Source: a phage. Taken from it: a DNA stretch of 41,519 nucleotides. Below are positions 11,926 through 41,519 of this stretch, in pieces. The notes below the pieces were generated by a model. The model made no database searches. It was not told the origin of the DNA and saw only the letters and a program-made list of their open reading frames with translations. The stretch lies in the sequence record NC_093711.1. The stretch is one strand, 5' to 3'. The position numbers were made by a program, and so were the translations under genes. Each line of letters begins with the position of its first letter. The first letter of the stretch is position 1.

Positions 11926-11950
11926 AAAAGGCCCCGAAAGGGGCCTTAGT
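11926..11950. terminator. bidirectional rho-independent terminator
   Basis: GC hairpin GGCCCCGAAAGGGGCC flanked by an A-run and a T-run, between the convergent kinase gene (+) and major tail gene (-). Confidence 0.7.
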
Positions 11951-11951
11951 T

Positions 11952-13124
11952 TTATGCGTAGGTGATGCGCTGAATAACAATAGACGACTGGTACTGGTTA
12001 CCAGTAGCCTGGCCTTCGATGGACTGAGTGATTGACTCAGGCCCGCCAATCTCAGGTGTAACCGCGGTAAGTTCTGCACGTTTCAAGCTGAAAGACATAG
12101 CCCCGTTTACCCCCGCCAGAATAGAGTTAATCTCCACCTGCTGCTCGTTGATAAACTTCTGAATCATCGCCATGTCGTACAGCTTACCGGAGATGGAGAA
12201 GGTGTTAGCTGCTCGGCTACGCTCCACAAACGCTACGTTAGTGTTGCCGAGTTCGAACTGTGCGGACGCGCTGTTGTCGTTGGTGATGGTCAGGCTGTCG
12301 CAACGCAACGGCGTAGAACCGTCGAACACAGAAACATCGACCGAGGAGAATGGCTCGTCACCAAACGTAACAGAGGAGAAATCAGAACCAGACGGCTGCG
12401 TGGTGAGAATCTCCTGACTGCGACCGATGAACGGGAAGCTGCCAGTTACCATAGCGTTAACAGCCTGTTCGATGGTAAAACCAGAAACTTCCACGCCTTT
12501 GGTTAGTGTGTACGCGTCAGTCCCGCCGCACTGGCCTTTGTACCAGGTGAGAATAGAGAACGTCTTGCACTGGCTTCCCGTTTCCAGTTTATCCCCTGTC
12601 TTAGCGGCGGTAGTTACTGTCTCTGTGGTCAGGGTATGCTGGATACCCGCCCCGGTCACTACCAGTGCCTCTACTGCAGTTACGATAAACGGTTTTGCGT
12701 TGTCACCGGTTAAGTCGGTAAACGCAATCAGGTCGCCCACTTCAACGCCGTCAGAAATAAAGCTACCTTCGGCACGGGTAAAGGTCTTGCCTGCAGGCGC
12801 GACGGTAATTGATAGCCCGGTCAGAGAACTACCGGATTGCCATGTAGAGCCTAAAGCACCCGCCAGCCAGTCGTCCTGGCTTTTCGAGCTAAGCTCAATA
12901 GCGTATTCTCCGCTAACCTGCTTGTTACCGGTGCGGATTGACGTAGTTTCACGGCTGCCGTCCAGTTCGTTGGAGGTCAGCGTGTCGCGGGTAATGGCAG
13001 GAACGCCACCTGTGTTACGCAATGGCGACCAGACCGGGTTAGTCGGTGTTACGCCCGGGGTAGTTTCTGCCACATAGAATTGCGCAGTATTCGCGCCCTT
13101 AAAAGGAGTTGTAGCCATATTCAC
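11952..13124 (-). CDS. major tail protein
   Basis: 390-aa ORF in the canonical position after the tail terminator-like gene. Thr/Ser/Gly-rich, beta-rich composition. Confidence 0.55.
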   Translation of the reverse strand: MNMATTPFKGANTAQFYVAETTPGVTPTNPVWSPLRNTGGVPAITRDTLTSNELDGSRETTSIRTGNKQVSGEYAIELSSKSQDDWLAGALGSTWQSGSSLTGLSITVAPAGKTFTRAEGSFISDGVEVGDLIAFTDLTGDNAKPFIVTAVEALVVTGAGIQHTLTTETVTTAAKTGDKLETGSQCKTFSILTWYKGQCGGTDAYTLTKGVEVSGFTIEQAVNAMVTGSFPFIGRSQEILTTQPSGSDFSSVTFGDEPFSSVDVSVFDGSTPLRCDSLTITNDNSASAQFELGNTNVAFVERSRAANTFSISGKLYDMAMIQKFINEQQVEINSILAGVNGAMSFSLKRAELTAVTPEIGGPESITQSIEGQATGNQYQSSIVIQRITYA

Positions 13125-17410: not shown

Positions 17411-17600
17411 ATCTCAGTAAACCAGTTACTTTTTACACAAGCAATAGAGTATGGCCCTTCCGAACGCGTCAGCGTAACTACACTCAGGACTTACGTCCCG
17501 CTCCGTTACCTGCCCGCGCCGCGGTCGCTTGTTCATACTTCACAAGCTCAGGTGGAGCTTATCATATTTTTAGTGAAAAGTCAACTATTCGAATAGTTTA
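17411..17600. other. conserved non-coding element, copy A (paralogous to 29440-29630)
   Basis: ~190-bp intergenic block. A 34-nt stretch (17518-17551, CCGCGGTCGCTTGTTCATACTTCACAAGCTCAGG) is identical to 29550-29583. No conserved ORF on either strand. Confidence 0.6.
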
Positions 17601-17644: not shown

Positions 17645-17668
17645 CACTAAAAAGCCCCTTTCGGGGCT
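17645..17668 (-). terminator. rho-independent terminator after the Ig-like protein gene
   Basis: Minus-strand hairpin GAAGCCCCGAAAGGGGCTT followed by TTTTT. Confidence 0.65.
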
Positions 17669-17673
17669 TCAGT

Positions 17674-18135
17674 TTATTCTGGCTTAGTAACCTTCGCCGC
17701 TTTACTGACGGCCTCTACCCCATCGGCATCGGTGACTTTAACGAAGTATTCACCGACAGCATTAACCGTCAGAGACAAAGCCTCTTCTGGGGCGTTTACC
17801 ACTTCCTTGCCGTCTTTGTACCAGGTCAACGCGTAAGGTGCTTTTCCCGCCTTAACTTCGACAGTGATAGTTGCGCTGCCGTCTGCCAGTTCAGCGTCCT
17901 GCGGTTGCGCAGAGAAGTACACATCACCAGCGTCCGCCAGATACGGAATTTCATAAAGCATACCCGCCGCGGACAGCGAAATACCGGTTTTATCTGCAAA
18001 CGGCATATCGTCTACAGGTGTACCTAGTACACTTTCGTCCCCAATAGACACCACGTTCTCCCCGGATCCGGACACGCGAGCAAACTGGACTACACGACGC
18101 GACGGCACATCAGTTACTTTGAAAAATCCCATCAT
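17674..18135 (-). CDS. Ig-like domain protein (possible head decoration protein)
   Basis: 153-aa ORF with a beta-rich C-terminal half. Lies between head morphogenesis and scaffold/capsid genes. Confidence 0.4.
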   Translation of the reverse strand: MMGFFKVTDVPSRRVVQFARVSGSGENVVSIGDESVLGTPVDDMPFADKTGISLSAAGMLYEIPYLADAGDVYFSAQPQDAELADGSATITVEVKAGKAPYALTWYKDGKEVVNAPEEALSLTVNAVGEYFVKVTDADGVEAVSKAAKVTKPE

Positions 18136-19211
18136 TATTCCCCTTTCAGATAATCAGCAACACGTTTATCGAGTTCCGCCATCTGCTTAAGCGTGAGCGG
18201 ATTCCCAAAACCATCTACAGATATTACGCGAAACTCTTCCGGCGATATACCGCTGTTACGGAAAATCTTACCTCGCACCGGGCCGAGCGCCTGGTCCTGA
18301 AACCATGCAGGTTGTTGTTTAAGGAACTCGTAATAAGTGGTGTCCGCGCTTACCTGAGTACCTCCGTCTGCACCTTTAGCCGCGCGTTTTGCGCCCTTAT
18401 CGAGGAAGTCGAACTCCGAACTGATTACAGGCGCAGTGGTGCTTCTGCACCCAAAATGGGCGGGGGGCATTGGCCCTTTACCGATTTCCCACGTCATTCC
18501 GTCTCTGGCTCTGCAAATCGTACTGGTACGGCTGTCCAGCGTTGACACCCACTCGTACTTCTCGATGATGTCGTCGTTCTGGCGGTACGTCTCGTTACGG
18601 GCTTCGTTGGACACGTGAGACAGCGCGGTGCGGATTACGGTAGCGGCATTACGTTCAGAGATGTCCGCCAGTCCGCCAGCGCCTACGATATTCTTAACAA
18701 TCTGCCGTGTGGTTTGGCCCTGCACAAAGCCCATCTTAACGCCGGTTACCAGGCGCGATACTTCGGTTTCACCCCAGCCGGACATCAGCTTAGTGAAATC
18801 AACGGGCTTGTCGCTTAACGATAAGGGCTGAAACTCGGCAGCGGCCCACACCTGCTCGGCGGTGGGTGTAACAAATTCCGCGTTAACGTTGGTGGTAAGT
18901 GTCTTTACGTTCCACTCAGCCTCATACGCCGCCAGTTCCTTGAGGTCTTCTGTCAGCTTTGTTTGCCAGTCACCTGTAAGTCCTGCCAGTGCGTCTTCCA
19001 GGTCACGTAACAGTTTATTCAGTCGCGCAGTGCTACGACCGTCGTCGCCGAATAACAGCACCTGCTGTTTTATTTCATCCCGCATCTCCTGAATAAACGG
19101 CGTAAGGTCTTTCACTTCGCCGGATGCGGTGCGTTGCAGCCATATCTGGTGGCTGATTAGAGATGTAAGTAAGCTCATAGATAAACCCTGTGGTACTAAA
19201 GTTAATAGCAT
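18135..19211 (-). CDS. head morphogenesis protein (Mu gpF / SPP1 gp7-like minor head protein)
   Basis: 358-aa ORF immediately downstream of the portal gene. Conserved-looking block TSTICRARDG...HFGCRST. Confidence 0.65.
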   Translation of the reverse strand: MLLTLVPQGLSMSLLTSLISHQIWLQRTASGEVKDLTPFIQEMRDEIKQQVLLFGDDGRSTARLNKLLRDLEDALAGLTGDWQTKLTEDLKELAAYEAEWNVKTLTTNVNAEFVTPTAEQVWAAAEFQPLSLSDKPVDFTKLMSGWGETEVSRLVTGVKMGFVQGQTTRQIVKNIVGAGGLADISERNAATVIRTALSHVSNEARNETYRQNDDIIEKYEWVSTLDSRTSTICRARDGMTWEIGKGPMPPAHFGCRSTTAPVISSEFDFLDKGAKRAAKGADGGTQVSADTTYYEFLKQQPAWFQDQALGPVRGKIFRNSGISPEEFRVISVDGFGNPLTLKQMAELDKRVADYLKGE

Positions 19212-19247
19212 ACTATAAGAAAGCCCCTTTCGGGGCTATATGTGAAC

Positions 19248-20846
19248 TTACGGCTGAGTGGTGTCCTGTTGCTGCGCCGACTGCGGAATCTCCCCCGCCA
19301 CCTGGGTAACAGCACCTAACGGCAGCGGCGCATCCTCGATAGCGTTCTGAATGTCCTCGTCTGTCCAGTCAGTTACCCCCGCCTTACGCAACGCAGCATA
19401 GTAAGCGGTAGCCGGTAACAGGCCCGCGTTAATATCCGCCATCCACTGAGCGCGGTCCTGGGCGGTCATTGGTTGCAGGAAGAACTCCATGTTCAGTTTG
19501 AACTCAATTTCAGTGCCGTCGCTAAGCCCAAGCATACCAGCAACCCACTTCAGCGCATCGGTATACGCCATGCTTACGTTACGTGCGATTGTTGCCATGA
19601 CGGACGTATCAGCGCCGCGTTGCAGGCGTGCCGATTCCGCGGTGATTTGCTGCGTCGGGGTAATAAGCTGTGCACCAATCTGGATTGCCTGGTTCTCTTT
19701 ATCCAACATGTTCTGCTTGGCTAGGTTGTTCTCACCGGCCTGGACCAGAAACGCATTGCCGCCGTAACCGATGTTATGGCCAGAACGTGACCCCATACGC
19801 ACTCCGTGAGGGTTAGCTTCTTTCCACTGCGCCATGCTCATATTCTCACCGGGGGCGATGAACAGAGTAGGCTGGCCCACAACGAAGCTGGACTCCTCAT
19901 TGTCCGCGCTGTTGCGGAAGTGCCCGATATTAAGTTCAGCCAACGGCAGCAAAGGTGCATCGTCAGGGGTTGGGTCGTTATTTCCCGCGCCGATGAACGT
20001 GAACGGAATCACCCCGACCGGAATATTACCGAGTTTCGGGAATATTTCGATATAGCCACCTTCCGTCAGTGCACCTTTCTGGTTAAAGCGGTACAGACGC
20101 TGGCGATACTGGCCTTCGAAAATATCAAGGACTCGGTATTGCTCGCCGTAGTTGGGGCTGAACTCATCCGCGCCATCGGTGTACTCGTATTCCTCACGCA
20201 ATACAACCATAACCACACGATTAACAGACCCGACGCGCTGGAGACGCCAGTTGATGATATTCTCTGCGGTGTAGAAAGCGATTGTTGGGTTTAGTAAACC
20301 CTCGTTTTGCTCTGCCATGGTAGCTACTTCTACCGCGGGGGCGTCAACCAGCAAACCACCGCGACCAACGGCATCAATCTCATACAGAGTATCCTGTGCG
20401 TGCTGCCACAGGCCAACGCCCGACCCGTCACAGTTAGTGGTCAGGTATTCCATCTGAGACGGAATAATCATCTCGGGGTCTTTGCGCATTACGCTGCCGA
20501 CCATGCCTGAAAGCGTTCGCTTGGTGAAGTTGTAGCAAATTGCCCCCGCTTCGTATTCAGCCTGACGCTGGCGACCGTAAACCGGGTCCGGCTCGTTCTT
20601 ACTGACGTCACGTAGATACGATGTCAGGTCGCCAGAAAGCGCATGTCGCACCTTCTGCCACTTAGGGAAATACTCTTCGTACTGGCGGTGGCGGGTTTTA
20701 ACGTTCCTCCCTTTGTAGTAGATAGATGTCAGGTCGCCAGAAAGCGCATGTCGCACCTTCTGCCACTTAGGGAAATACTCTTCGTACTGGCGGTGGCGGG
20801 TTTTAACGTTCTGCCCTTGCCCTGCGTTAATGTTTGCGGAAACCAT
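19248..20846 (-). CDS. portal protein
   Basis: 532-aa ORF immediately downstream of the large terminase gene. The N-terminus carries a 105-bp (35-aa) in-frame tandem duplication. Confidence 0.8.
   Translation of the reverse strand: MVSANINAGQGQNVKTRHRQYEEYFPKWQKVRHALSGDLTSIYYKGRNVKTRHRQYEEYFPKWQKVRHALSGDLTSYLRDVSKNEPDPVYGRQRQAEYEAGAICYNFTKRTLSGMVGSVMRKDPEMIIPSQMEYLTTNCDGSGVGLWQHAQDTLYEIDAVGRGGLLVDAPAVEVATMAEQNEGLLNPTIAFYTAENIINWRLQRVGSVNRVVMVVLREEYEYTDGADEFSPNYGEQYRVLDIFEGQYRQRLYRFNQKGALTEGGYIEIFPKLGNIPVGVIPFTFIGAGNNDPTPDDAPLLPLAELNIGHFRNSADNEESSFVVGQPTLFIAPGENMSMAQWKEANPHGVRMGSRSGHNIGYGGNAFLVQAGENNLAKQNMLDKENQAIQIGAQLITPTQQITAESARLQRGADTSVMATIARNVSMAYTDALKWVAGMLGLSDGTEIEFKLNMEFFLQPMTAQDRAQWMADINAGLLPATAYYAALRKAGVTDWTDEDIQNAIEDAPLPLGAVTQVAGEIPQSAQQQDTTQP
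20620..20810. repeat. 105-bp tandem direct duplication inside the portal gene
   Basis: An 86-nt segment at 20620-20705 is repeated exactly at 20725-20810 (period 105 nt), duplicating ...KGRNVKTRHRQYEEYFPKWQKVRHALSGDLTS in frame. Confidence 0.85.
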
Positions 20847-20857: not shown

Positions 20858-22108
20858 TTAAAGTGCGAAAGTCACCGGGATGTTGATTACTGGTTTAACC
20901 ACCGGCATCTCGTAAACTACAGGATAGCCGAGAGCATCCGCCATATGGTCAATGATGCCGTCTTTAGCTGGCTCTCCGTTATCATCGTATGCCTGCTGCT
21001 CCAGCGTCTTCGCTATCTCGGGGCATAAGTGGTCGTTAACCCACAGCTTACCTTTTTCCAGTGCGGTATTCACGGCTAAAACACGGTCTTTAACCGGAGG
21101 GTTGGCGGATTTAGCGCGAACATCTAAACCTGCCTGCTGGAGTAACGCAATATCTGAGATTGACGCCGAGTTGGTCTTGCGGTTCTTGCCGCTGGCGTCC
21201 GGGTAAACGACTATGCGGTGGCCCTGCGACTTCCACTTCTCAGTAATTACGCGCACGGTATCCGGTGTATCGAACAGGCCTTTCAGTTCTGCTACCGCGT
21301 GCCAGCCGTCTTTACGTTGCACATACACGGCGCTTGCGTTCTTCGTAACGTTGAAGTCCTGCCCGATGTACAACGTGTCACCCGGTTGAATTACCTCTTT
21401 GCTGCGGTGCTTACGGCGGTCATATGCGTAATACACGCTGCCGGAGGTAAGGTTGACGAACTCACCATTCAGATACGCGTTAATCAACTGCGCCGGATAA
21501 GTCTCGGTCAGCGAACTAATGTAGTCAGGTGGCAGGAATCGCGCGTTCTCGTGTGTAGAAGCCTGCACCATCGAGTAACTCGGCGTCGGGTTCTCTTTGA
21601 ACTTGGCGTAGACGAACTTGAACCCTTCCGGTGTCGTGGTGACAGAGATGTGGTTAGTTACGCCGGGGATAACCAGACGCATACGGGCGACTATTTTGTT
21701 CCACGCCAGCTCAGCTTTCTCACGGCTCAATACATCAAGCTCATCCACGACCGCAGCAGCGATTTTGAAGCCGACTATCGAGCCTGGGTTATCCATAGAA
21801 CGGCAGATAACTGTACCGAGCACCGTCTTACCGCGAGTAACCACGACTTCTTTGTCGCCAGATTTAACCAGCACATCGAGGCCGAGCAGGTTAGCGGCTT
21901 CCTCAAATGTCGGGTAGAAGATGTCACGGATAGCCGGGTATGTCGGGCCGAAGTAACCCAGGCGCGTACCTGGATGCTTGAGCATAAACGTAAGCAGGTC
22001 AAGGCAGCCAACAAATGTCTTTCCGCTGCCGAAGCCGCCGACATATGCCTTATATTTGTTATCACAATTCAGGAACAGCGCCTGCGGTGCGGATAGCTGA
22101 ATACTCAT
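20858..22108 (-). CDS. terL: terminase large subunit
   Basis: 416-aa ORF with Walker A-like GGFGSGKT near the N-terminus and an acidic C-terminal nuclease-like region. Start overlaps the upstream stop (ATGA). Confidence 0.85.
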   Translation of the reverse strand: MSIQLSAPQALFLNCDNKYKAYVGGFGSGKTFVGCLDLLTFMLKHPGTRLGYFGPTYPAIRDIFYPTFEEAANLLGLDVLVKSGDKEVVVTRGKTVLGTVICRSMDNPGSIVGFKIAAAVVDELDVLSREKAELAWNKIVARMRLVIPGVTNHISVTTTPEGFKFVYAKFKENPTPSYSMVQASTHENARFLPPDYISSLTETYPAQLINAYLNGEFVNLTSGSVYYAYDRRKHRSKEVIQPGDTLYIGQDFNVTKNASAVYVQRKDGWHAVAELKGLFDTPDTVRVITEKWKSQGHRIVVYPDASGKNRKTNSASISDIALLQQAGLDVRAKSANPPVKDRVLAVNTALEKGKLWVNDHLCPEIAKTLEQQAYDDNGEPAKDGIIDHMADALGYPVVYEMPVVKPVINIPVTFAL

Positions 22109-22650
22109 TCCTCTACCTCACCCATATTCGTTGTTACAATTTTACCTACAGGCTCTGCAACACTAAAAATAATCTCGGTCGGTGCCGTTTCTTCGGTGGA
22201 TTCAACTGGTTTCTCTTTGCCGAGGCCCAGCTTAGCGGCAGCAAATGTAGCCGAGATGCCCGCGGCCCCCGTCTCAGTGAAGTATGCCTCTTCCAGTGCC
22301 TGTGCGGTCTCCCAGGCTTCTGCGAATGCTGGAATCTCACGCAGCCATAGCTTAATAATAGGGATAGTGGCGCCGATGTGTAAGGCAAAGCGGGCCAGTG
22401 ACGGAGGTTTATCCTGAATCAGCGGGCGTTCGTCACCCTTAGACGTAGGCACGAGTTCCCACGACGTGCGGTCGAAGAACTCGATTAGCGCGTCGCAATA
22501 ATCCGGGTCCCACAGCGCGGCGGAATTACGGGATGATTGATAAAGGCTCTGTTTACCGCGCGGTCGTTTACGTCGGCGGTTTGCGCTAACAGCTTCTTCA
22601 TGTGCAGCTTGCACCACCTCTGGCGATGGCTGCTTGAGTTTCAGCTTCAT
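22105..22650 (-). CDS. terS: terminase small subunit
   Basis: Immediately upstream of and coupled to terL. Likely start MKLKLKQ with an AAGGGGA Shine-Dalgarno; the track ORF extends to 22689. Confidence 0.55.
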   Translation of the reverse strand: MKLKLKQPSPEVVQAAHEEAVSANRRRKRPRGKQSLYQSSRNSAALWDPDYCDALIEFFDRTSWELVPTSKGDERPLIQDKPPSLARFALHIGATIPIIKLWLREIPAFAEAWETAQALEEAYFTETGAAGISATFAAAKLGLGKEKPVESTEETAPTEIIFSVAEPVGKIVTTNMGEVEE

Positions 22651-24387: not shown

Positions 24388-24544
24388 TTTCCAAACACCC
24401 CTTTAGCTTTCAGATTATTGCGGTAGAACTGCATCACATGCTCATTATGAAAGTTACTCATCTTCTCTACTCCGTTCTCGTTGTCGATGGAGTAAATATA
24501 ATAGGGTCTAAGGTAATAGTCAACTAGTCATTACAGAAAACAGA

Positions 24545-27761: not shown

Positions 27762-27827
27762 CTCTGTCTCTCCTCTCGCTTGTGTAAATGAATAGTAGCC
27801 TATTCTATCTTAGTGTGCAAGTAAATT

Positions 27828-29287: not shown

Positions 29288-29317
29288 AATAGTATCCTAT
29301 TATGTTGAGGTGCGCAA
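29288..29317 (-). promoter_or_regulatory. leftward early promoter TTGCGC-N17-TACTAT with palindromic operator AATAG-N4-CTATT (29288-29301)
   Basis: Minus strand: -35 TTGCGC (rc at 29312-29317), 17-nt spacer, -10 TACTAT (rc at 29289-29294). Operator overlaps the -10. Confidence 0.5.
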
Positions 29318-29439: not shown

Positions 29440-29630
29440 ATCAGTAACTTAGATAATTAGACAGGAATTACAATAGACTTTGGTCCTTCCGAATGCGCCA
29501 GCGAGACTCACTCCACACGTCGAGACGTGCTCGTTTCGCCTGCCGCGCACCGCGGTCGCTTGTTCATACTTCACAAGCTCAGGACGAGCTTACCATATTT
29601 CTTAGTAAAAGTCAATACCAATAGCATCTT
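29440..29630. other. conserved non-coding element, copy B (paralogous to 17411-17600)
   Basis: Lies between the leftward early promoter and the rightward promoter. 34-nt identity at 29550-29583 with 17518-17551; hairpins at equivalent positions. Confidence 0.6.
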
Positions 29631-29722: not shown

Positions 29723-29905
29723 ATGCCGCATTACATGACACAGAATGAAGTAGCTGAACGTATCGGGGTGACACGTCAGACAATTAATAACTGGCTGCGC
29801 AGTGGTAAATTCCCGGATTGCTGTATTAAGGTTATGGGTCGCCGTTTACCGGGAACATTCGACCGTAATAAAGTTGAAGCATGGATTAAGGAGAACGTGA
29901 AATGA
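29723..29905 (+). CDS. small HTH DNA-binding protein (AlpA/excisionase-like fold)
   Basis: MPHYMTQNEVAERIGVTRQTINNWLRSGKF is a typical HTH. An alternative ATG lies at 29717; the track ORF starts at 29651. Confidence 0.55.
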   Translation: MPHYMTQNEVAERIGVTRQTINNWLRSGKFPDCCIKVMGRRLPGTFDRNKVEAWIKENVK

Positions 29906-30114
29906 TTGGGCGTATGGGTTGTTACTTTGAAAACGGTAAAGTTAAATACTGGTTTAAGTTTGCGTCAGAAATTACTGACAGCGGATTCTATGCAGAAATA
30001 TGTAAGCCTAATCATTTGTCGGAACCGACGCGCATTATTAAGATGCCAGTAGATGTGTTAAGTAAATGCCGTTTCTATGATTCCGAGCGCGCGTGGTTTT
30101 CTGGTTGTAAATAA
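29902..30114 (+). CDS. hypothetical protein
   Basis: 70-aa ORF coupled to the HTH gene (ATGA). Confidence 0.4.
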   Translation: MIGRMGCYFENGKVKYWFKFASEITDSGFYAEICKPNHLSEPTRIIKMPVDVLSKCRFYDSERAWFSGCK

Positions 30115-30182
30115 AAGAAACCCCAACGCCAGAACGTCGGGGTTGAAGCACAAATCATCAAAGTAAGCCCAAGGATTATACA

Positions 30183-30311
30183 ATGACAAAGTTAATAGTT
30201 CCACAGCTACGCCGCCAGAAACACGGCGCTGATTTCTTCGCACCAGTAAAGATGAACCGCGCAATGCGCCGTATGCAGGAAGCCTTAGAACGTGCGGAGA
30301 AAAAGAAATGA
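30183..30311 (+). CDS. small basic protein (~42 aa), not in the ORF track
   Basis: AAGGA Shine-Dalgarno; stop overlaps the primase-helicase start. Confidence 0.3.
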   Translation: MTKLIVPQLRRQKHGADFFAPVKMNRAMRRMQEALERAEKKK

Positions 30312-32569
30312 ATATTGTTTTTGCGACGCTGCGTAACACATTCGATAAAAACCCTGTAGCGCGTGAAATGCCGCTGGAGCAGTTTGTGGAGTATGTCTGC
30401 GATACATCGAAGCGTTTATCCGTGGATCCGTCGTGGTCTAAGGAAGAGTACGACGCTGCCAAGATTAAGCAGAAAGCTATCGCGCCTGTTGGGGGTCGCC
30501 GTAAAAACGCTATCCTTGAAGACAGTGTGGTTAAGTTCGACTTCGACCATCTCAACCGTACTCAGTACCGCGACCTGACACGCAAATTCAAGAACGCGAC
30601 GTTCTTCAACATTCTGCACACAACGGCATCGCATCAGCATGCGTGTAAAAACGGGGATTACGCATTCCGCGTTCTGGTTCCAGCTCGCACGCCGTTTAAC
30701 TCTAACGACGCGTGGATGGTGCAACGTGCTATTTGTGCCGAGTTAGAAATAGATGAATCGCTGCGCGACCACTGCACGGAAGACGGCAACCGCCTCATCT
30801 ACCTGCCACATAAAGAGTCTAAGATAACGGTTACAGAAGGGCGTGTTATCCGTGCGGAGCGGTACATCAAGAAAGCCGAAGAGATGGGGCTGCGTAAACG
30901 CGAGGCTAAGACACTTGCCGCCGATGAGCACGGGCTTAACGCAGATATAGCTCATTTCTGCGAAGCCGAGCTGGGCCTTGACGCTTTATCTTCCGGCCGA
31001 GGGTATGAAGTGCCATGCCCTAATGAACATCTGCATACAGGCAAAGGCTCCACCAGCATCATGCTTGACGGTAAAGAGGTGCGCTTCGTGTGCCAGCACA
31101 CAAACAACGGCGCTTGTACCGAGCTTAACCGTCGGCAACATTTGGCCTTGCGTATGTGCGGCCTGCCCGACGAGCTTAACGTAGACAAGCAACCTATCAG
31201 TATTAACAGCATTCGTGCGGCTTTGCCTGACTTACCGGACGAAGAGATTGAAGAACTGCACCGCACAGAGAACGAGGAGCCTGTAACTTGTACGCTTGAA
31301 GACCTCGAAGACGAGCCGGAAGTAGAAAAAGAACCTGCTTACCCCGTAGTAGACGGCCTTATGCAGACCAACGAATCGTTCTACATTTGCGCAAAGTCCC
31401 ACACTGGTAAGTCAACATTTAGTATGGCGATTGATGCTGCTATCGCCGCCGAAAAAAGATATGCGTTCGGTGGTGCTGAGGTCGCAGAAGGTCATGCATT
31501 TATCTTCGCGGGCGAAGGTGCGCAGTCGTTCGAGAGACATAAAAAATCTTTGCAGATTGCACTTGGCGATAGCCTCGACCGCTTACACATTATCGATTGT
31601 GTTGCAGATGGGTGTAACCTCCTCGACGAAGCATGGCGTCGCCAGGCGGTGAGAATGATGCGCCGTGTTGCCGGTGAAGAGAAAATTGTAAAGGTTACGT
31701 TTGATACTCTACAAACTTGCATACCGGGCTTCGACGAGAACGACAACCGGTCTATGAAAGAAGCAGCGCAGGCGCTTAACGAAATAGCATCGACGCTTAA
31801 CGCCGCGGTAGGTGCAATGGTGCACCCGACTAAAAACATCGACGAAACCGTACCATCCGAGAACGGCATGATGCCGAAAGGTGGTAGTGATTTTCACAAC
31901 TCCATCGATAACGGGATGTTTCTGCATAAACCGGACAACGATAACAACTTAGAGATAAACCTGTACCACATAAAGAACCGAAACGGAGAACGGCAGAAAG
32001 CCAGAGGATTCGTAATACAGAAGATTCAGATAGCGGAACCACCAGAAAAGAAAGAACCAACTCACAACTTCATGGGTCTTCCAGAAGGGTACAGTAGCGA
32101 CGATGTGCGCGATTTTGACGCGGGAAATCCGCATATTGATGTCTTTGTCAACTTCAACGCCTTCTCTGTCTTCGTGAAGAAAGTAGAAGGTATGACCGAC
32201 GAACAGAAGGAAGCCGTTAAAGAAAAGGTAGGCCAGTTCGAGAAACTGGATTCCAAAGAGGCTACGGTTATTTACGCATTGGGTAAATTGCAGGAGCAGG
32301 GTGACGACAAGCGCGGGTTTTCTATGTCCGCTATCGTCAAAGCGGCGAAAGAAGATAGTTACGGCGTACCGATTAACGCTAATAACGACCTTCGAAAGAA
32401 ACTGGAAGAGATGCATGAGGCCGGGATTATCGTCTCGGGTCTGGATAACAACAACAGGCCCATACCTAAGCAGTACCGGCTGCCGTGGGGCATAAACGAC
32501 AACAAGATTCCGAAGACAATATACGAACCGAATGAAATGCTGGTGGTGACAGAGGAGGATTTGGAATAG
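30308..32569 (+). CDS. DNA primase-helicase (zinc-binding primase-like N-terminal region + RecA-like P-loop ATPase)
   Basis: 753-aa ORF with a Cys/His cluster (CPNEHLHTGKG...CQHTNNGAC) and Walker A (YICAKSHTGKST) followed by Walker B-like FIFAGEG. Ends ...VTEEDLE. Confidence 0.7.
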   Translation: MNIVFATLRNTFDKNPVAREMPLEQFVEYVCDTSKRLSVDPSWSKEEYDAAKIKQKAIAPVGGRRKNAILEDSVVKFDFDHLNRTQYRDLTRKFKNATFFNILHTTASHQHACKNGDYAFRVLVPARTPFNSNDAWMVQRAICAELEIDESLRDHCTEDGNRLIYLPHKESKITVTEGRVIRAERYIKKAEEMGLRKREAKTLAADEHGLNADIAHFCEAELGLDALSSGRGYEVPCPNEHLHTGKGSTSIMLDGKEVRFVCQHTNNGACTELNRRQHLALRMCGLPDELNVDKQPISINSIRAALPDLPDEEIEELHRTENEEPVTCTLEDLEDEPEVEKEPAYPVVDGLMQTNESFYICAKSHTGKSTFSMAIDAAIAAEKRYAFGGAEVAEGHAFIFAGEGAQSFERHKKSLQIALGDSLDRLHIIDCVADGCNLLDEAWRRQAVRMMRRVAGEEKIVKVTFDTLQTCIPGFDENDNRSMKEAAQALNEIASTLNAAVGAMVHPTKNIDETVPSENGMMPKGGSDFHNSIDNGMFLHKPDNDNNLEINLYHIKNRNGERQKARGFVIQKIQIAEPPEKKEPTHNFMGLPEGYSSDDVRDFDAGNPHIDVFVNFNAFSVFVKKVEGMTDEQKEAVKEKVGQFEKLDSKEATVIYALGKLQEQGDDKRGFSMSAIVKAAKEDSYGVPINANNDLRKKLEEMHEAGIIVSGLDNNNRPIPKQYRLPWGINDNKIPKTIYEPNEMLVVTEEDLE

Positions 32570-32576
32570 ATAAAAA

Positions 32577-32596
32577 GAAAGGGGCATTAAGCCCCT
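32577..32596. terminator. hairpin terminator between the convergent primase-helicase and repressor genes
   Basis: AAAGGGGC-ATTAA-GCCCCTT; a T-rich tract follows on the minus strand. Confidence 0.5.
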
Positions 32597-32802
32597 TCAC
32601 CTAGCGCCAGCCACTTGGCGTCTACTTCCAGCACTTCCGCCAGTTTAAACAGCGTTGCCGGGCGGACGTCTTGGGTTACCCCAAGTGCCAGCTGGTTAAT
32701 TGCGCCCTGGGAAACCCCGGTCAGGGCAGCCAGACGGCGCTGGGAGATGCCGAGTTCTTTACGGCGTTGTTCTACACGGATACCTAGTTCAGATGGTTGC
32801 AT
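32587..32802 (-). CDS. XRE-family (Cro/CI-like) HTH transcriptional regulator
   Basis: 71-aa ORF with a canonical HTH (ELGISQRRLAALTGVSQGAINQLALG). Divergent from the 32928 gene, with operator palindromes between them. Confidence 0.75.
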   Translation of the reverse strand: MQPSELGIRVEQRRKELGISQRRLAALTGVSQGAINQLALGVTQDVRPATLFKLAEVLEVDAKWLALGEGA

Positions 32803-32832: not shown

Positions 32833-32896
32833 AATAGTACCATATTAATTATTTTATAAAAGCCCATTGACAACCTGAATAGTTAGCTATTATAGT
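32833..32896. promoter_or_regulatory. divergent promoter/operator region with two AATAG-N4-CTATT-type palindromes
   Basis: Imperfect palindrome at 32833-32846 overlaps the -10 for the minus-strand regulator gene. A perfect palindrome at 32878-32891 sits in the plus-strand promoter TTGACA (32867-32872)-N18-TATAGT (32891-32896). Confidence 0.55.
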
Positions 32897-32927: not shown

Positions 32928-33416
32928 ATGTTAGAACAATTTTTAAAATTACTGGAACGTTTCGTAGTTGCGCACGAACTGATTGCCGCGAATAGCGTGA
33001 AACAACCTGTGTATGAACTTAAGGCAGATGTAAACATCGCAGATAGTGTTCGTGATGTTGTTGTGAAAGAAGTAACGAAAGAAATCCCGGTAGAAGGTGA
33101 AGACACCGTTGACACTAAACCAGAAGAAGAAGAGAAGCCGAAGCGCAAGCCGCGTAAAGCTAAAGTAGAGGGGCCAACGCCAGAGCCGGAAGAAGAGAAA
33201 GAAGAAGTCGATTACCAGTCTCTGCGCGACCAGATTCAGGCTATCGACGATGCGATTAACGAAGGCCCAAGCGATGCCGCGTGCGACGATTCTGACGAAC
33301 TGCTGGAAGAGTTTACCGGTAAGAAGATGAAGATTGCAGCGATTAAAGACGAAGACCTGGCTGAGTATCTGGAGCGCCTGACAGCAATCAAGAACAAGTA
33401 TTTCGAAGAAGAATAA
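32928..33416 (+). CDS. highly acidic protein, unknown function
   Basis: 162-aa ORF with a strongly Glu/Asp-rich central and C-terminal region. First gene of the operator-controlled rightward operon; GAGGAG Shine-Dalgarno. Confidence 0.5.
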   Translation: MLEQFLKLLERFVVAHELIAANSVKQPVYELKADVNIADSVRDVVVKEVTKEIPVEGEDTVDTKPEEEEKPKRKPRKAKVEGPTPEPEEEKEEVDYQSLRDQIQAIDDAINEGPSDAACDDSDELLEEFTGKKMKIAAIKDEDLAEYLERLTAIKNKYFEEE

Positions 33417-33459
33417 CTATCCCGCGGCCTTCGGGCCGCTTTAACTCAGGGTCGGAATT

Positions 33460-33663
33460 ATGGCTATTTTAGCTAAGAAAAGTGGTCTTATGATTTCAGG
33501 GCGAGTTATAGAAGAAACAGATAACTTTGTATGCTTCCACGCTGTAGATAATAAACGCCCTACGTATGTACAAAAGTCGGATAAAACACAAAAAGTTTTC
33601 GACGGTGATTTTTCTATGGATGACGTTTTCGCGTGGGTGGATTCTGTGAGGGTAAAGAAATGA
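33460..33663 (+). CDS. hypothetical protein
   Basis: 67-aa ORF coupled to the downstream gene (ATGA). Confidence 0.45.
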   Translation: MAILAKKSGLMISGRVIEETDNFVCFHAVDNKRPTYVQKSDKTQKVFDGDFSMDDVFAWVDSVRVKK

Positions 33664-33938
33664 TTTACCAACTCTACCGCGCCGTAGACAGGCGGGATAG
33701 CACCGAGGCGTTGTGGCTGTTGCGTGCGCCGTCCGGTGCGCACCAGATGGAAGAGATGGCGTACTTAGGCAAAGTACCACTACCTAAAGATATAGGTCGT
33801 CACGTGTCGCAGATTAAGCGCACGACATTCGCCAAACCTGACTTTTATGTCTTCGAGTCGATGTATGGTTGGGCTATGCATTGCCATCACCAGACACGAC
33901 ATTTAATTGACCAGTGGGAGAGCAGAGCATGTTTGTAA
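33660..33938 (+). CDS. hypothetical protein
   Basis: 92 aa from the ATG at 33660; the track ORF starts at 33633. Confidence 0.45.
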   Translation: MIYQLYRAVDRRDSTEALWLLRAPSGAHQMEEMAYLGKVPLPKDIGRHVSQIKRTTFAKPDFYVFESMYGWAMHCHHQTRHLIDQWESRACL

Positions 33939-34069
33939 TTATGTATTCAATCGGTGAGGAAGAGTACGAACATAGTAGATACCTTACATCCGCAGAGGCC
34001 GAGAATATGATACACGAACTTGACGCTGACAGTTTCGACTACGCATGGATTGAGGAGATTGCGGAATGA
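33929..34069 (+). CDS. small acidic protein (~46 aa), not in the ORF track
   Basis: Stop overlaps the nuclease start (ATGA). Confidence 0.3.
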   Translation: MFVIMYSIGEEEYEHSRYLTSAEAENMIHELDADSFDYAWIEEIAE

Positions 34070-35307
34070 TTCTTAAAGAACGCGGTGGAAATAACGATGT
34101 TCACGCATTACTGTCGCCGTCTGGGGCTAAAAAGTGGCTAAGCTGTGCCGCATCACTGGCCTGTGAGAAAGATATTCCTAACTCGTCCGGCAAAGCTGCC
34201 GTATTAGGTACAGCAATGCACACCATAGCAGAGATGCATCTTAACCAGTACATCAAAGGCACTGCGCTGCCGTTAGAGCGCGAAGTCGGGGCTTACGTGC
34301 TGGATGAAGGTAAAGGCCAGATTAAGGCTCTAATCAGCCCGATGAAAGGCGCGGTACTTATTACGGCGGACATGATTGAACAGGTGCGCAAGTACACCGA
34401 CTATTGTAAGGCGATTATCGATGTAGCGACTTACGCTAAGCTGGAAATGCGCGTCAATCTTACTGAGGTATTGCATCCGGGTTATGAAGGCGTTGAGACG
34501 TTCGGAACCGCTGACATCGTTGCCATACAGGAACTGGCGAACACCGACGAACACATGCTTATCATCGGCGACCTGAAAACCGGGCGGCATCGTGTCGAAG
34601 CGAAAGAAAACAAGCAGCTTATGCTTTACGCTCCCGGTGTTTATCGCCGACTCAAGAGACGTTATAACATAACAACCGTTCGTCTGGTCATCTTCCAGCC
34701 GTATGCTGGCGGTGCGTCGGAGTGGGACATCTCGGTTGAAGGTCTGGAACTGTTCGCTAAGTTTGCACATAAACGCGCGCTGTTAGCCCTTGATGCGTAT
34801 TTCCGTGGCAAGAAGAATCTGAAAGCGTCGGATTTCAGGCCGTCGGTCGATGGTTGTCAGTGGTGTCGGTTCTCTGAACAATGTGCCGCGCGTACAAAGA
34901 CGGTTAATTCTGTACTGGCGGAAGAACTAGAAGACGACTTTGTGCTGGAACTTACGCCGGAGCAACTCGTAGCTGAGTATGAGAAGTTGCCGTTGTTGCG
35001 CCAGCACATCGACAAGGTTGAAAAAGCGATGGCAGCCGCTTTGCATTCCGGTAAGAAAGTGCCGGGTTACAAGCTGGTTGAAGGTCGCCAGGGTAATCGT
35101 GCGTGGAAAGACGCGGAGAAAGTAACAGAACTCTACGGCGACAAGCTGACTAAAGAAGTGCTCATGTCACCTACCGAAGCTGTTAAAGTCATACCGGAAG
35201 AAGAACTGAAAGACTTCATTACCCGTAAGCCGGGCGCACCATGTGTCGCAACGGCAGACGACAAACGTCCTGAGTGGAATCAGGTAACAGAGGAGGATTT
35301 AGAATGA
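34066..35307 (+). CDS. PD-(D/E)XK nuclease, Cas4/RecB-like exonuclease
   Basis: 413-aa ORF with nuclease-core motifs (GTADIVAI, IGDLKTG, QLMLYA) and a C-terminal Cys cluster CQWCRFSEQC typical of Cas4-like nucleases. Ends ...VTEEDLE. Confidence 0.7.
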   Translation: MILKERGGNNDVHALLSPSGAKKWLSCAASLACEKDIPNSSGKAAVLGTAMHTIAEMHLNQYIKGTALPLEREVGAYVLDEGKGQIKALISPMKGAVLITADMIEQVRKYTDYCKAIIDVATYAKLEMRVNLTEVLHPGYEGVETFGTADIVAIQELANTDEHMLIIGDLKTGRHRVEAKENKQLMLYAPGVYRRLKRRYNITTVRLVIFQPYAGGASEWDISVEGLELFAKFAHKRALLALDAYFRGKKNLKASDFRPSVDGCQWCRFSEQCAARTKTVNSVLAEELEDDFVLELTPEQLVAEYEKLPLLRQHIDKVEKAMAAALHSGKKVPGYKLVEGRQGNRAWKDAEKVTELYGDKLTKEVLMSPTEAVKVIPEEELKDFITRKPGAPCVATADDKRPEWNQVTEEDLE

Positions 35308-35463: not shown

Positions 35464-35493
35464 TTGACACCTGAATAGTAAGCTATTATAGTT
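35464..35493 (+). promoter_or_regulatory. promoter TTGACA-N18-TATAGT with palindromic operator AATAG-N4-CTATT (35474-35487)
   Basis: Upstream of the SSB-like gene. Confidence 0.5.
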
Positions 35494-35546
35494 CTAATCA
35501 CTGGCCGGGCAGCTTCCCGGAGTAAACTTAAAAGCGAGAAATCACG

Positions 35547-38413: not shown

Positions 38414-38769
38414 ACTGATTATCGCGGTACTGGCGGGATTTGCTGCCGGTGTCTACTGTCACGAGGGTCAATACGGCATGATGGTTGCTATATTGGGTAT
38501 GTTCATCGCAATTTATCTGTGGGTGCTGGAATGAAAATCTACTGGTTTTATGAAGAAGACTGTCGAATCTGTCCGCGCTGCGGTATTGGACATACGAAAC
38601 GTGAGGGGTGCGTATTATGACAATGTTTGTATTTTGGACGATAGTAACCATGCTCGCACTGCTACTCGGCGCAGGAATAGCCGCGTTGTTCTGTTACGGT
38701 CTGTTCTTTAAGTTTGTTGGCGTTGCTGTTCTTGGCGGGGCTTTCATTACCTGGATTCCGCGGTCATGA
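38403..38769 (+). CDS. three overlapping coupled micro-ORFs (~43, 29 and 50 aa): two small membrane peptides flanking a Cys-rich peptide
   Basis: Approximate boundaries 38403-38534, 38531-38620 and 38617-38769, each joined by ATGA-type overlaps. Hydrophobic stretches in the first and third; CRICPRCG in the middle one. Not in the ORF track. Confidence 0.3.
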
Positions 38770-39050
38770 CTAAAGAGGGCCGCGTACAGAAATACGCAAA
38801 GGAGCGATTCGAGGCCATCGGCGGCCTCGTTCGTAAGCTCTCCTACGAAGGACGTTCGGGTGCTCCTGACCTGCTGGTAATTCTCCCCGGCGGCATAGTC
38901 TGGTTCGTCGAGATGAAGAAAGACGAAAACACGAAGCCAGACCCGCACCAGATACGTGAGCACGAGCGGATGCGTAAACGTGGTGCGAATGTTTTTGTCG
39001 TTGGTTCGTTTAAACAGGTTGACGACCTAATAGCGAGCTATTATAGTTAA
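38766..39050 (+). CDS. VRR-NUC domain nuclease
   Basis: 94-aa ORF with PD-(D/E)XK-type core (GAPDLLVILPGG...FVEMK) and a downstream QIREHERMRKRGA motif. Confidence 0.55.
   Translation: MTKEGRVQKYAKERFEAIGGLVRKLSYEGRSGAPDLLVILPGGIVWFVEMKKDENTKPDPHQIREHERMRKRGANVFVVGSFKQVDDLIASYYS
39019..39047 (+). promoter_or_regulatory. promoter TTGACG-N17-TATAGT with palindromic operator AATAG-N4-CTATT (39029-39042)
   Basis: Embedded in the 3' end of the VRR-NUC gene, ~35 nt upstream of the 39081 start. Confidence 0.45.
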
Positions 39051-39080: not shown

Positions 39081-39272
39081 ATGAAACACGAATATGACCG
39101 CAAACCAGCACGTGACATCGTACCTGGCGATATGATTTTCAACGTTAAGACCCGCCACCCTGTTGCCGTTGATACGGTGTACGTCGAGTCAAACGGTAAA
39201 CTGGTTATCGAAGATGTAACAGGAAACGTTACGGCGTTCGGGCGTAAGGAACTGGTTCTGGTGGCGAAATGA
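39081..39272 (+). CDS. hypothetical protein
   Basis: 63-aa ORF coupled to the helicase gene (ATGA). Confidence 0.4.
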   Translation: MKHEYDRKPARDIVPGDMIFNVKTRHPVAVDTVYVESNGKLVIEDVTGNVTAFGRKELVLVAK

Positions 39273-40693
39273 GTAAGTTTCAAAGGCGCGAGTACCAGAA
39301 GCTCATGACTTCGTTCATGCTGCGGCACCATCGCTGTAATATTTGGGCAAGCATGGGCGCCGGGAAGACTGGCAGCGTACTGTGGGTATTAAACCGACTG
39401 TTACGTAATGGTCAGCTTAATGATGACGACCGCGTGTTAATCCTCGCCCCGCTGCGCGTTGCGTCCGGCACATGGCCCGCAGAACAAGAGAAATGGCGAT
39501 TCCCGTGCCTGCGTGTCGTAGATGCGACAGGTTCAGAGAAACGCCGCATCGCGGCGCTGGAGTCAGATGCTAACGTGGTGTGTACCAACTACGAAGTTAT
39601 CGAGTGGCTGATTGACTACTACGGCAAAGACGACTGGCCTTTTACCGTTATCGTTGCCGACGAGAGCACGAAACTGAAATCGTTCCGCAGCCGTTCTGGT
39701 GGCAGCAAGCGCGCGAAGGCACTCAGCAAAGTGGCATTCGGTAAGGTTAAGCGTTTCATTAACCTGACAGGCACACCGTCGCCGAACGGCCTCAAGGACT
39801 TGTGGGGGCAGAACTGGTTTATCGACGCTGGCGAGCGCCTTGGTTCTTCGTACACGGCATTCACAGACCGCTGGTTTAACTCGGTACAGAAAGGGAAATC
39901 CGCGATGGCGCGGGAGTATCACGCACGACCGGGTGCGGATAATGAGATTCATCAGAAGATGAAAGACATTAGTCTCACGATTGACGCCGCCGAGTGGTTT
40001 GGTTGCGAAGCGCCGATTATTGTACCGGTTGAAATCGACCTGCCGAAGAAGGCGCGTCAGGCGTACATCGATATGGAGGAAAAGTTATTCGCGGAACTGG
40101 AAAGCGGAGAAGTTGAAGCGGCTAACGCCGCGGCAAAGACGTCAAAGTGTTTGCAGATTGCTTCTGGTGCTGTGTATGTATCAGGGCCAGACGGAGAAGC
40201 AACCAAAGACTGGGAGAAAGTGCACGACACGAAACTGGATGCGCTGGAGTCAATTGTTGAGGAGTTACAGGGTGCTCCGCTACTGGTAGCCTATCAGTTC
40301 AAGCACGAACTGGAGCGTATCCTGAAACGTTTCCCGCAGGCGCAGGCATTCGCGAAAGGTGCTAAGGGTAATAAGCAGATGGAAGCATGGAACCGCGGCG
40401 AAATCGAAATCTTATGCGTGCATCCTGCGTCGGCCGGACATGGTTTGAATTTACAGGACGGCGGACATCATCTGGCATTCATCTCGCAAGGCTGGAACCT
40501 TGAGCACTATTTGCAGGTTGTCGAGCGCATAGGCCCAGTTCGCCAGAAGCAGGCAGGCCACGAACGCCCGGTGTTCCTGTATCACATCGTTGCTAAAGAC
40601 ACACTGGACGAGGTTGTTGCCGCGCGTACCGACGAGAAGAAATCGGTACAGGAAGAGTTGCTTAACTACATGAAGAGACGAGGTAAGAAATGA
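39269..40693 (+). CDS. SNF2/DEAD-like superfamily II helicase
   Basis: 474-aa ORF with Walker A (GAGKTG), DEAH-like box (VIVADESTKL), motif III (LTGTPSPNGLKDLW) and a C-terminal helicase-domain motif (SAGHGLNLQ). Confidence 0.8.
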   Translation: MSKFQRREYQKLMTSFMLRHHRCNIWASMGAGKTGSVLWVLNRLLRNGQLNDDDRVLILAPLRVASGTWPAEQEKWRFPCLRVVDATGSEKRRIAALESDANVVCTNYEVIEWLIDYYGKDDWPFTVIVADESTKLKSFRSRSGGSKRAKALSKVAFGKVKRFINLTGTPSPNGLKDLWGQNWFIDAGERLGSSYTAFTDRWFNSVQKGKSAMAREYHARPGADNEIHQKMKDISLTIDAAEWFGCEAPIIVPVEIDLPKKARQAYIDMEEKLFAELESGEVEAANAAAKTSKCLQIASGAVYVSGPDGEATKDWEKVHDTKLDALESIVEELQGAPLLVAYQFKHELERILKRFPQAQAFAKGAKGNKQMEAWNRGEIEILCVHPASAGHGLNLQDGGHHLAFISQGWNLEHYLQVVERIGPVRQKQAGHERPVFLYHIVAKDTLDEVVAARTDEKKSVQEELLNYMKRRGKK

Positions 40694-40827: not shown

Positions 40828-40831
40828 AGAA

Positions 40832-40858
40832 AAGGCCCCGTTTGGGGCCTTAGTTTTA
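40832..40858. terminator. bidirectional rho-independent terminator
   Basis: GGCCCCGTTTGGGGCC hairpin with flanking A-run and T-run, between the convergent plus-strand replication operon and minus-strand tail fibre gene. Confidence 0.65.
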
Positions 40859-41519
40859 TTTATCTTCTAGTGCTGCCAGCCTCTTCTCGAACTCGCGCAT
40901 CTTCTTACGCTGATAGGCAATCTCTATGAAGAACATCTGGTCCGCCCTAACCCCCCATCTGCCGCCGGGAGGGGATACTTGTACAGTCTGGCCATCTTCA
41001 TCAATATCATACGCGGCTTCAATTGAGTCGTAGCACAAGAAAGCATATTTACAATCGGTAGAATCTTTCTCCATAAGCCCATGGTCGACCAAGATGTCTC
41101 GCACATCTTGGGCTATCACACCGAAGTGTATCCTTGCAGTGTCACCCTTGATTGCTAGGCTTTCAAGCCACTTAAAAGATATTACATGTATATCCTCCCA
41201 TGCGGTAAGGAGTTGTCCCTCAATTTCCTCTTTGTTCGTCTTAAGTGTACCATCAGACGTGTTTATCGTACCGGTGGCCGCGTACACCGTAGTCCACCTA
41301 TTACCTGCCGAACCTAAAGACACTTGCGAGTCTAAGTAAGGAAGAAAATTGTTGTATGAGTAGAAGCCTCCTGACGCATACATAATAGCCCTGTTAGGCG
41401 TTGCATGGTTTGCCCCGTACAGTTGCAGCAACGCACCATCGGAACGGGATGCACCATCACCACCGCTAACTATCAGTCTTTGACCCGATGGGGTTTTAGT
41501 GGGGACTGTTTTTGAAATC
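40856..41519 (-). CDS. tail fibre C-terminal region with intramolecular chaperone domain (peptidase S74-like); partial, N-terminus beyond the window
   Basis: The frame is open from 41431 to the window edge. C-terminal pattern TSDGTLKTNKEEIEG...FGVIAQDV resembles the autoproteolytic chaperone domain of tail fibres and endosialidases. Confidence 0.55.
   Translation of the reverse strand, partial: ISKTVPTKTPSGQRLIVSGGDGASRSDGALLQLYGANHATPNRAIMYASGGFYSYNNFLPYLDSQVSLGSAGNRWTTVYAATGTINTSDGTLKTNKEEIEGQLLTAWEDIHVISFKWLESLAIKGDTARIHFGVIAQDVRDILVDHGLMEKDSTDCKYAFLCYDSIEAAYDIDEDGQTVQVSPPGGRWGVRADQMFFIEIAYQRKKMREFEKRLAALEDK

Follow-up and report, generated by a model that had tools for sequence, protein, structure and literature searches.

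Dispersed 14-bp palindromes at the promoters of an Escherichia coli K1 phage as probable operators of its own 434 Cro-like protein

Between positions 32833 and 32896 of an Escherichia coli K1 phage genome, both promoters of a divergent pair carry a 14-bp palindrome, AATAG-N4-CTATT, which recurs at promoters throughout the genome. This arrangement raises the question of which protein, if any, binds the palindrome and what such binding would mean for transcription. The sequence that we analyzed in full (NC_093711.1, 41,519 nt; hereafter, the window) belongs to the genus Kagunavirus (Guernseyvirinae). Its nearest relative is Escherichia phage L AB-2017 (94% identical), phage K1H is also close, and the related phage records comprised 483 entries, the majority of them Salmonella phages of the genus Jerseyvirus.

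Structural and lysis genes run leftward from ~27.6 kb, and a set of small early genes runs leftward from 29.3 kb. An operon that begins with an HTH_17 gene and includes the primase gene runs rightward from 29.7 kb, the XRE gene (32587–32802) is transcribed leftward, and the three replication units, again rightward, start at 32.9, 35.5 and 39.1 kb. The primase region (29723–32802) is mosaic relative to Shemara (L003, 35330–38169). Primases of Kagunavirus and Jerseyvirus are 26–31% identical, and each is preceded by HTH_17 and faced by a convergent XRE gene; the primase region of Cornellvirus lacks HTH_17, and its XRE gene lies upstream of the primase gene on the same strand. Some further features of the window were recorded. 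G+C-rich hairpin terminators of the AAAAGGCCCCGAAAGGGGCCTTAGTTTTAT type occur three times (11926–11955, 17649–17678 and 40830–40859), at module boundaries where gene direction switches, and are probably bidirectional. A 94-nt direct repeat within the portal gene 19248–20846 (20620–20713 and 20725–20818; 98% identical, spaced 105 nt) results either from the in-frame duplication of 35 codons or from faulty assembly; the portal protein has 532 residues in the window versus 497 in K1H. N bases at positions 8, 12, 15, 24–25 and 30, in the 3' end of the tailspike ORF (1–2184), suggest low-quality contig-end sequence at the start of the window.

Palindrome copies and promoter layouts

The preliminary description of this sequence had listed perfect copies of the palindrome at 9324, 27791, 29288, 32878, 35474 and 39029 and an imperfect copy at 32833. 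All six exact matches were found at these positions, compared with 0.01 expected in the window, and the copy at 32833 (AATAGTACCATATT) carries one mismatch; an example of the 14-mer is AATAGTAAGCTATT. When up to one mismatch was allowed, the window contained 10 matches (0.95 expected). In an unbiased count of all 5-Nk-5 palindromes, AATAG-N4 ranked first in the window with its six copies, and AATAG-N4-CTATT was also first in K1H (7 copies) and Golestan (8 copies) and joint first in Jersey (4 copies, as TAATAG-N4-CTATTA).

The weight-matrix scan of the whole genome that the preliminary description had proposed was performed with a symmetric matrix trained on other genomes only, a cut-off of ≥10 bits and shuffled sequences as a control. 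It returned 10 sites, compared with 0.30 in the shuffles, and the scores showed a clean gap from 10.5 down to 7.2 bits. The motif is thus more common than in shuffled sequence. Nine of the 10 sites lie in non-coding DNA, which makes up 9.9% of the window, and the tenth lies within the last 22 nt of a gene. Three sites lie beyond those listed earlier (24515–24528, 19204–19217, whose status is uncertain, and the degenerate 17576–17589).

The palindromes overlap sigma-70-type core promoters in three registers, with centers at about –12.5 (class B), –18.5 (class A) and –33.5 (class C). In class A (32878, 35474 and 39029; all rightward), TTGACA/G is followed after 4–5 nt by the palindrome, whose final T opens the –10 hexamer TATAGT, and the spacer measures 17–18 nt. 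In class B (9324 rightward; 27791, 29288 and 32833 leftward), TTGCAC or TTGCGC is followed after 10 nt by a palindrome that contains the –10 hexamer TACTAT. In class C (24515, leftward), an imperfect palindrome contains the –35 hexamer of TTGACT-17-TATATT. The motif is slightly asymmetric (TGAATAGTAnnCTATTAT) and is oriented oppositely in classes A and B. Because it is inverted and shifted by 6 bp between these two classes, with a further shift of ~15 bp in class C, it is not a fixed promoter element. The earlier view that the palindrome overlies a –10 hexamer at every site accordingly holds for 9324, 27791, 29288 and 32833 (TACTAT), but not for the three rightward promoters, where the palindrome occupies the spacer and has one base in common with TATAGT.

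The two palindromes at the locus that opened this study, O1 and O2, form a divergent promoter pair and lie 45 bp apart. O1 (32833–32846) is the imperfect copy and belongs to the promoter of the XRE gene (32833–32862, AATATGGTACTATT on the minus strand), with the –10 TACTAT at 32834–32839 and a TG at 32841–32842. A –35-like hexamer had been assigned to this promoter as well; we found only CTTTTA, which is unusable, and an extended –10, TGG-TACTAT, in place of a real –35. As read from the sequence, the lone mismatch base of O1 (32842) is the T of the extended –10 TGn, and we attribute the retention of this imperfection in all Kagunavirus sequences to that role. O2 (32878–32891) lies in a class A promoter on the plus strand (32867–32896; –35 TTGACA at 32867–32872, 18-nt spacer, –10 TATAGT at 32891–32896) that precedes the genes at 32928–35307.

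The other two class A promoters are likewise on the plus strand. One (35464–35492; operator 35474–35487, 24.8 bits) precedes the DUF2815 and DNA polymerase genes, and the other (39019–39047; operator 39029–39042) lies in the final 22 nt of the gene 38766–39050 and drives 39081–40693, which includes the helicase gene. Two class B promoters are on the minus strand, namely that of the small early genes 29263–27828 (29288–29317; operator 29288–29301, –35 TTGCGC at 29312–29317, –10 TACTAT at 29289–29294) and that of the unit running into the lysis genes (27791–27820; operator 27791–27804, –35 TTGCAC at 27815–27820, –10 at 27792–27797). On the plus strand, a class B promoter (9308–9337; operator 9324–9337, –35 TTGCAC at 9308–9313, –10 TACTAT at 9331–9336) precedes an insert (9365–11923) whose genes, named from the K1H annotation, encode a small protein, an exonuclease, a polynucleotide kinase and an ATP-binding protein. 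The class C promoter (24495–24528, ACTAGTTGACTATT on the minus strand; –35 TTGACT at 24518–24523, –10 TATATT at 24495–24500) heads the leftward unit toward the NinH-like, terminase and structural genes; its imperfect operator (24515–24528, 10.5 bits) is kept in its imperfect form in both Kagunavirus and Jerseyvirus.

The possible extra site at 19204–19217 (AATAGCATACTATA, 17.6 bits), to which we assign no strand and whose function is uncertain, directly follows a terminator hairpin and covers the annotated start codon of the gene 18135–19211. The site at 17576–17589 (AAAAGTCAACTATT, 12.8 bits; no strand) is degenerate and is probably a remnant: relatives that have additional genes near the equivalent position carry a perfect site ~120 bp away (K1H, 4489; Golestan, 4884). 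An everted arrangement of half-sites, CTATTCGAATAG, had been reported inside one copy (A) of a conserved element. It instead lies at the edge of this element, a 70-nt repeat (17515–17584), and CTATTCGAATAG consists of the right half of the degenerate site and an adjoining partial half-site.

The 70-nt sequence is itself of note. Its two direct copies (17515–17584 and 29546–29615; 87% identical) contain a second palindrome, AAGCTC-N5-GAGCTT, with the center AGGTG in one copy and AGGAC in the other, embedded in the promoter-like TTCACA-18-CATATT. Copy B lies upstream of the HTH_17–primase operon, so the second palindrome may be the operator of a second regulator. The repeat is restricted to Kagunavirus (one copy in K1H, two in Golestan), with none in Jerseyvirus or Cornellvirus. 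The leader of the DUF2815–DNA polymerase unit contains a hairpin (35499–35520, CCGGG-CAGCTT-CCCGG) immediately after the 35474 promoter, and this hairpin has counterparts in Jersey (L002, ~22100–22130) and Shemara (L003, ~31370–31400). It is invariant in Kagunavirus and shows one compensatory change in Cornellvirus (CCTGG...CCAGG); its folding energy is ordinary (z = 0.17). In Golestan (L005, 38960–39000) and at several IMG/VR Kagunavirus loci, a perfect AATAG-N4-CTATT lies away from any promoter, and tandem, iteron-like repeats similar to GGTGTAACAGG flank it; repeats of this type have no copy in the window.

Conservation of the half-sites among relatives

Orthologous regions were collected by blastn with 70-nt flanks and aligned with MAFFT, with no requirement for the motif; this analysis replaces a regex-anchored version that was partly circular. 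Over ~40 related phages, the half-sites are nearly fixed, and the four central bases and the neighboring spacer are variable. For example, at the 39029 site (42 unique sequences), the entropies (×5) were 0, 2, 0, 0 and 0 in the left half-site, 4, 5, 7 and 3 in the center and 0, 0, 0, 1 and 0 in the right half-site. The half-sites of O2 showed zero variability, with variation in its center and in the upstream spacer. In class B, the center is fixed only at two bases, which belong to TACTAT. The region of the XRE promoter is nearly invariant (36 unique relatives). Because the left half-site of class A sits where sigma-70 reads no bases, something else must constrain it. In these alignments, the combination of fixed half-sites and a free center points to a bound dimer rather than to contacts of RNA polymerase alone.

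These data bear on the possibility that the palindrome has no dedicated binder and that a promoter cassette has been copied around the genome and retained for the –10 hexamers that it offers in both directions (TATTAT and TACTAT). Such copying could account for the up to 31 nt that sites have in common beyond the palindrome (family D1) and for the –10-like hexamer in each orientation of the motif, and papers based on PHIRE have named the sites promoters. However, the left half-site of class A is invariant within a spacer for which RNA polymerase has little preference, while its neighbors vary, and the two-fold symmetry is retained in three registers. In addition, the same type of palindrome is found beside homologous repressor genes in unrelated elements (see below). 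We therefore consider a copied cassette to be quite improbable.

The PHIRE-based papers reported a 'phage-specific promoter' or 'regulatory element' in the Kagunavirus fBC-Eco01 (tgAATAGTa-ccTATTat-T, 7 sites), Golestan (7 sites) and SGP-C (TAATAGTACCCTATTATGTT), which is the same DNA in the same places as the palindrome of the window (PMC9825357, PMC7203180, PMC8790156). They read the element as a promoter, in one case ascribing it to a phage RNA polymerase, and its two-fold symmetry, the three registers and a binding protein are unmentioned (PMC9825357, PMC7203180, PMC8790156). In our literature searches, the repeat appeared solely under the labels 'phage promoter' and 'regulatory element', with no operator or regulator assigned to it. 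We rejected promoters of a phage RNA polymerase: the annotations of two complete relatives, K1H and Golestan, include no RNA polymerase, and the orientation of the motif and its distance to the transcription start vary among classes A, B and C. Each ORF of more than 370 codons in the window matches, by position and size, an annotated K1H gene other than RNA polymerase.

Candidate binding proteins

The window encodes three HTH candidates: the XRE protein, the HTH_17 protein (60 residues) and a NinH-like protein. The two alternatives to XRE, which the preliminary description had also named, fare worse. The NinH-like protein is found in all three genera and shows no link to the motif, and its phyletic pattern does not speak against it. 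The XRE gene (32587–32802, minus strand) is monocistronic, with a terminator-like hairpin at its end (32578–32598), and its product of 71 residues is the proposed repressor. The protein matches Pfam HTH_3 (E = 3.9e-13, 49.7 bits; cut-off 23), and its PHROG label is 'transcriptional repressor'. Its nearest solved structures are 434 Cro, also of 71 residues (E = 8.5e-6), and the N-domain of 434 CI (E = 1.1e-5), both aligned over residues 6–68, and P22 C2. Its recognition helix, GVSQGAINQ, is of the class that goes with A(A/T)TAG operators. XRE is found in all three genera that have the motif or a variant of it (Kagunavirus, Jerseyvirus and Cornellvirus). A large protein search returned only Kagunavirus-type proteins (77–97% identical).

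Proteins of the 434 family bind 14-bp two-fold symmetric operators whose center is unread, and Gln28 of the 434 protein contacts an operator adenine. The likeness of the phage system to 434 Cro and CI is considerable. By sequence, the proteins belong to one fold family (E ~1e-5 in a full-length alignment). Like the 434 operators, the palindromes span 14 bp with two-fold symmetry and keep their outer bases while the center is free to vary. They lie over promoters that include the regulator's own, with a divergent pair carrying two operators beside the gene. The XRE helix keeps a Gln at position 2, and the operators begin with A. In contrast, the half-site is AATAG in the window phage and ACAA in 434 (ACAA-N6-TTGT). 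Moreover, 434 has six operators in two clusters, whereas the window phage has at least eight, distributed among all its transcription units and in three registers, and the window phage is regarded as virulent.

We also surveyed how the recognition helix and the half-site correspond in distant repressors. For this purpose, 90 homolog loci were aligned, and the residues equivalent to XRE 29–39 were read off. Where the helix was G[VI][ST]QGxIxQ, a perfect ATTAG-N4-CTAAT preceded the gene by no more than 250 bp at all 28 loci, on unrelated viral contigs. Many of these loci are interrelated, and the ~11 distinct operator sequences suggest nearer ten independent lineages. Two further entries had AATAG-N4-CTAAT. 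Other helices were paired with other half-sites in the same 5-N4-5 geometry (SQV.IQ with ATAAC, TQAAIGA with ACAAC, KQPSLAY with ATAGA, STMAIGD with TAAAG and SDSMLHK with TGTAG). The density of the TAG-N4-CTA core was 16-fold higher close to XRE-homolog genes. Among the IMG/VR loci L058–L142, every helix with Gln at position 2 goes with an A-initial half-site. At the distant loci of the first IMG/VR scan (G+C 0.46–0.63), XRE was the sole protein common with the window. A scan of bacterial genomes gave six loci, with no motif near the gene in the five that were scanned; the sixth (L086), which is Jerseyvirus-like, was left out. The rule relating helix to site is not clean within the subfamily: the XRE helix of Jerseyvirus differs (SQSLITH) with the same half-site, and the motif of Cornellvirus is only half-palindromic (ATTAGTnnnRTAWT); we count both points against XRE as the binder.

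The nearest relatives of XRE outside the subfamily are CI-type repressors on IMG/VR contigs such as L058 and L072, which combine an XRE N-domain with an S24 peptidase in ~230 residues. They are 31% identical to 434 CI over their full length and 40–45% identical to the XRE protein of the window. These proteins resemble XRE in having a SQGxIxQ helix and the same operator geometry, with ATTAG one base off AATAG; their operators are found on both sides of the gene, those upstream at a distance of 28–90 bp. They differ in being of the cleavable type, in apparently temperate elements, with few operators, all beside the repressor gene (within flanks of 2.5–10 kb). Our searches found no characterized phage with an ATTAG-type operator, and the nearest named relatives of these CI-type homologs were VarioGold, Burkholderia KL4 and 434.

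The main rival among the phage's own proteins is the HTH_17 protein (29723–29905), an Xis/AlpA/MerR-like product of the first gene of the primase operon, which might bind the palindrome, either repressing transcription or serving as a promoter-loaded factor. Kagunavirus and Jerseyvirus have both this protein and the perfect palindrome, and Cornellvirus has neither. Mapped by gene order, its gene is among the early genes of the K1B4 time course. One paper on the Jerseyvirus SGP-C guessed that it acts as 'cI' and XRE as Cro, with neither tied to the repeat (PMC8790156). HTH_17 seemed at first to track the palindrome, being absent from Shemara, SenTO17 and L053–L056, and was dropped as the binder after a relaxed pattern (A[AT]TAG-N4-[ACG]TA[AT]T, with the half-palindromic consensus given above) yielded eight variant copies in each of the two complete, HTH_17-free Cornellvirus-like genomes, at orthologous promoters, compared with 0.8–1.0 expected; an example is TTGACAtagcATTAGTACAGTATTatagtt ahead of the DUF2815 gene. 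Two other Cornellvirus palindromes were set aside: GAATA-N3-TATTC did not appear to be promoter-associated, and TATTA-N6-TAATA is the variant motif in another register.

Further observations count against HTH_17. Its helix is strongly diverged in K1H (VSPMTLNRW versus VTRQTINNW), yet K1H has seven perfect palindromes. No HTH_17 homolog was detected (tblastn, E up to 1e-3) at the loci of the first IMG/VR scan that have ATTAG-N4-CTAAT beside XRE homologs. The protein has no significant solved relative, with weak matches to the Xis-like gp37 and RppC; we know of no 14-bp two-fold operators for either. Binding of the palindrome by HTH_17 thus seems very unlikely to us.

That the host, E. coli or Salmonella, supplies the DNA-binding protein that recognizes the palindrome is the least plausible reading of all, and we regard it as extremely unlikely. 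The hosts are alike across the three phage genera, which would fit such a protein. However, this type of operator follows XRE homologs into elements of 0.46–0.63 G+C, whose hosts must differ considerably, and the half-site shifts with the helix of the phage protein.

Taken together, the footprint of conservation, the fold family and the match of helix to half-site support the proposal of the preliminary description that one dimeric HTH regulator controls a regulon, with XRE as the candidate. On this sequence evidence, we consider it probable that AATAG-N4-CTATT is the operator of the phage's own XRE protein, a relative of 434 Cro that would repress the promoters concerned.

Predicted regulation and related systems

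In the mechanism that we propose, an XRE dimer would place the recognition helix SQGAINQ on each 5-bp half-site and leave the four central bases unread. Because the operators overlap core elements of host sigma-70-type promoters, the bound protein should block RNA polymerase, and it would do so from over the –10 (class B), the spacer (class A) or the –35 (class C). XRE would be made from its own weak promoter, with its extended –10 and imperfect operator. As it accumulates, it would first lower the promoters that have perfect operators, namely those of the three replication units, the two leftward units and the insert at 9365–11923; at higher levels, it would lower its own promoter and the imperfect 24515 site. 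Nearly all transcription units would thereby come under negative feedback of a Cro-like kind, without a CI partner. The sequences show the sites, their promoter geometry, the selection on the half-sites and the match of helix to half-site across the family; binding by XRE, repression rather than activation and the order of promoter shut-off are inferred from them.

XRE could instead bind as an activator or dual regulator, for example turning class B on (–35 TTGCAC) and class A off. The –35 hexamers of class B are poor, the putative XRE gene and most of the 'middle' genes peak together, and shutting off all units looks counter-productive in a lytic phage. Nevertheless, the geometry is repressive in all three classes, and a dimer on the class B operator (–19 to –6) would collide with sigma region 2. 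We know of no 434-type protein that activates from this position, and activation by XRE therefore has little probability in our judgment.

Repression by XRE has its own difficulties. Were every unit repressed, including those that lead to the lysis and structural genes, a productive lytic cycle would be difficult to explain unless repression is partial. The only Kagunavirus transcriptome, that of K1B4, was sampled coarsely and classes 4 of its 57 genes as early, 42 as middle and 11 as late. We mapped its genes by order and names: the early 'Helix-turn-helix' gene 008 corresponds to HTH_17 and the middle 'specific DNA binding' gene 004 to XRE. Although a perfect operator precedes the DNA polymerase gene, this gene is reported as late, with a peak after that of the putative XRE gene. 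This is an ill fit to a simple shut-off, given coarse data and an inferred mapping.

Dispersed repressor regulons are known from temperate phages, as in the C1 operators of P1, the 'stoperators' of mycobacteriophage L5 gp71 and the conserved inverted repeats of phiC31. These systems are similar in that one small phage repressor acts on many dispersed operators at or near promoters. They differ in that the proteins belong to other families, the sites of P1 and L5 are asymmetric and the operators are used to maintain lysogeny. A bistable CI/Cro switch was not found: the annotations of K1H and Golestan include neither a CI-type (S24) repressor nor an integrase, and the only XRE protein of the window has 71 residues. 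Our comparison supports a 434-type repressor–operator system, a well-known kind that, judged by its DNA, would be unusual in being Cro-only and in being spread over nearly all promoters of a supposedly virulent phage.

A more far-reaching version holds that XRE might act as a global repressor of all mapped promoters (at least eight) and, in a family regarded as strictly virulent, support a non-integrated pseudolysogenic carrier state and superinfection immunity without CI or integrase. We consider this rather unlikely. The Jerseyvirus SGP-C has been described as forming turbid plaques and immune 'lysogens', possibly as an episome (PMC8790156). Global silencing, if true, would explain these turbid plaques, 'lysogens' and immunity, and it would matter for the use of Kagunavirus and Jerseyvirus phages in therapy and biocontrol.

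Phages of these two genera are common candidates for therapy, biocontrol and engineering, and their gene control has been undescribed. Reading the palindrome as an operator gives almost all transcription units a wiring scheme that is open to testing, and it sets right the published attribution to a phage RNA polymerase. The correspondence of helices and half-sites is useful for predicting the operators of uncharacterized 434-like repressors, and XRE with its operator may offer a compact repressor–operator pair for phage engineering.
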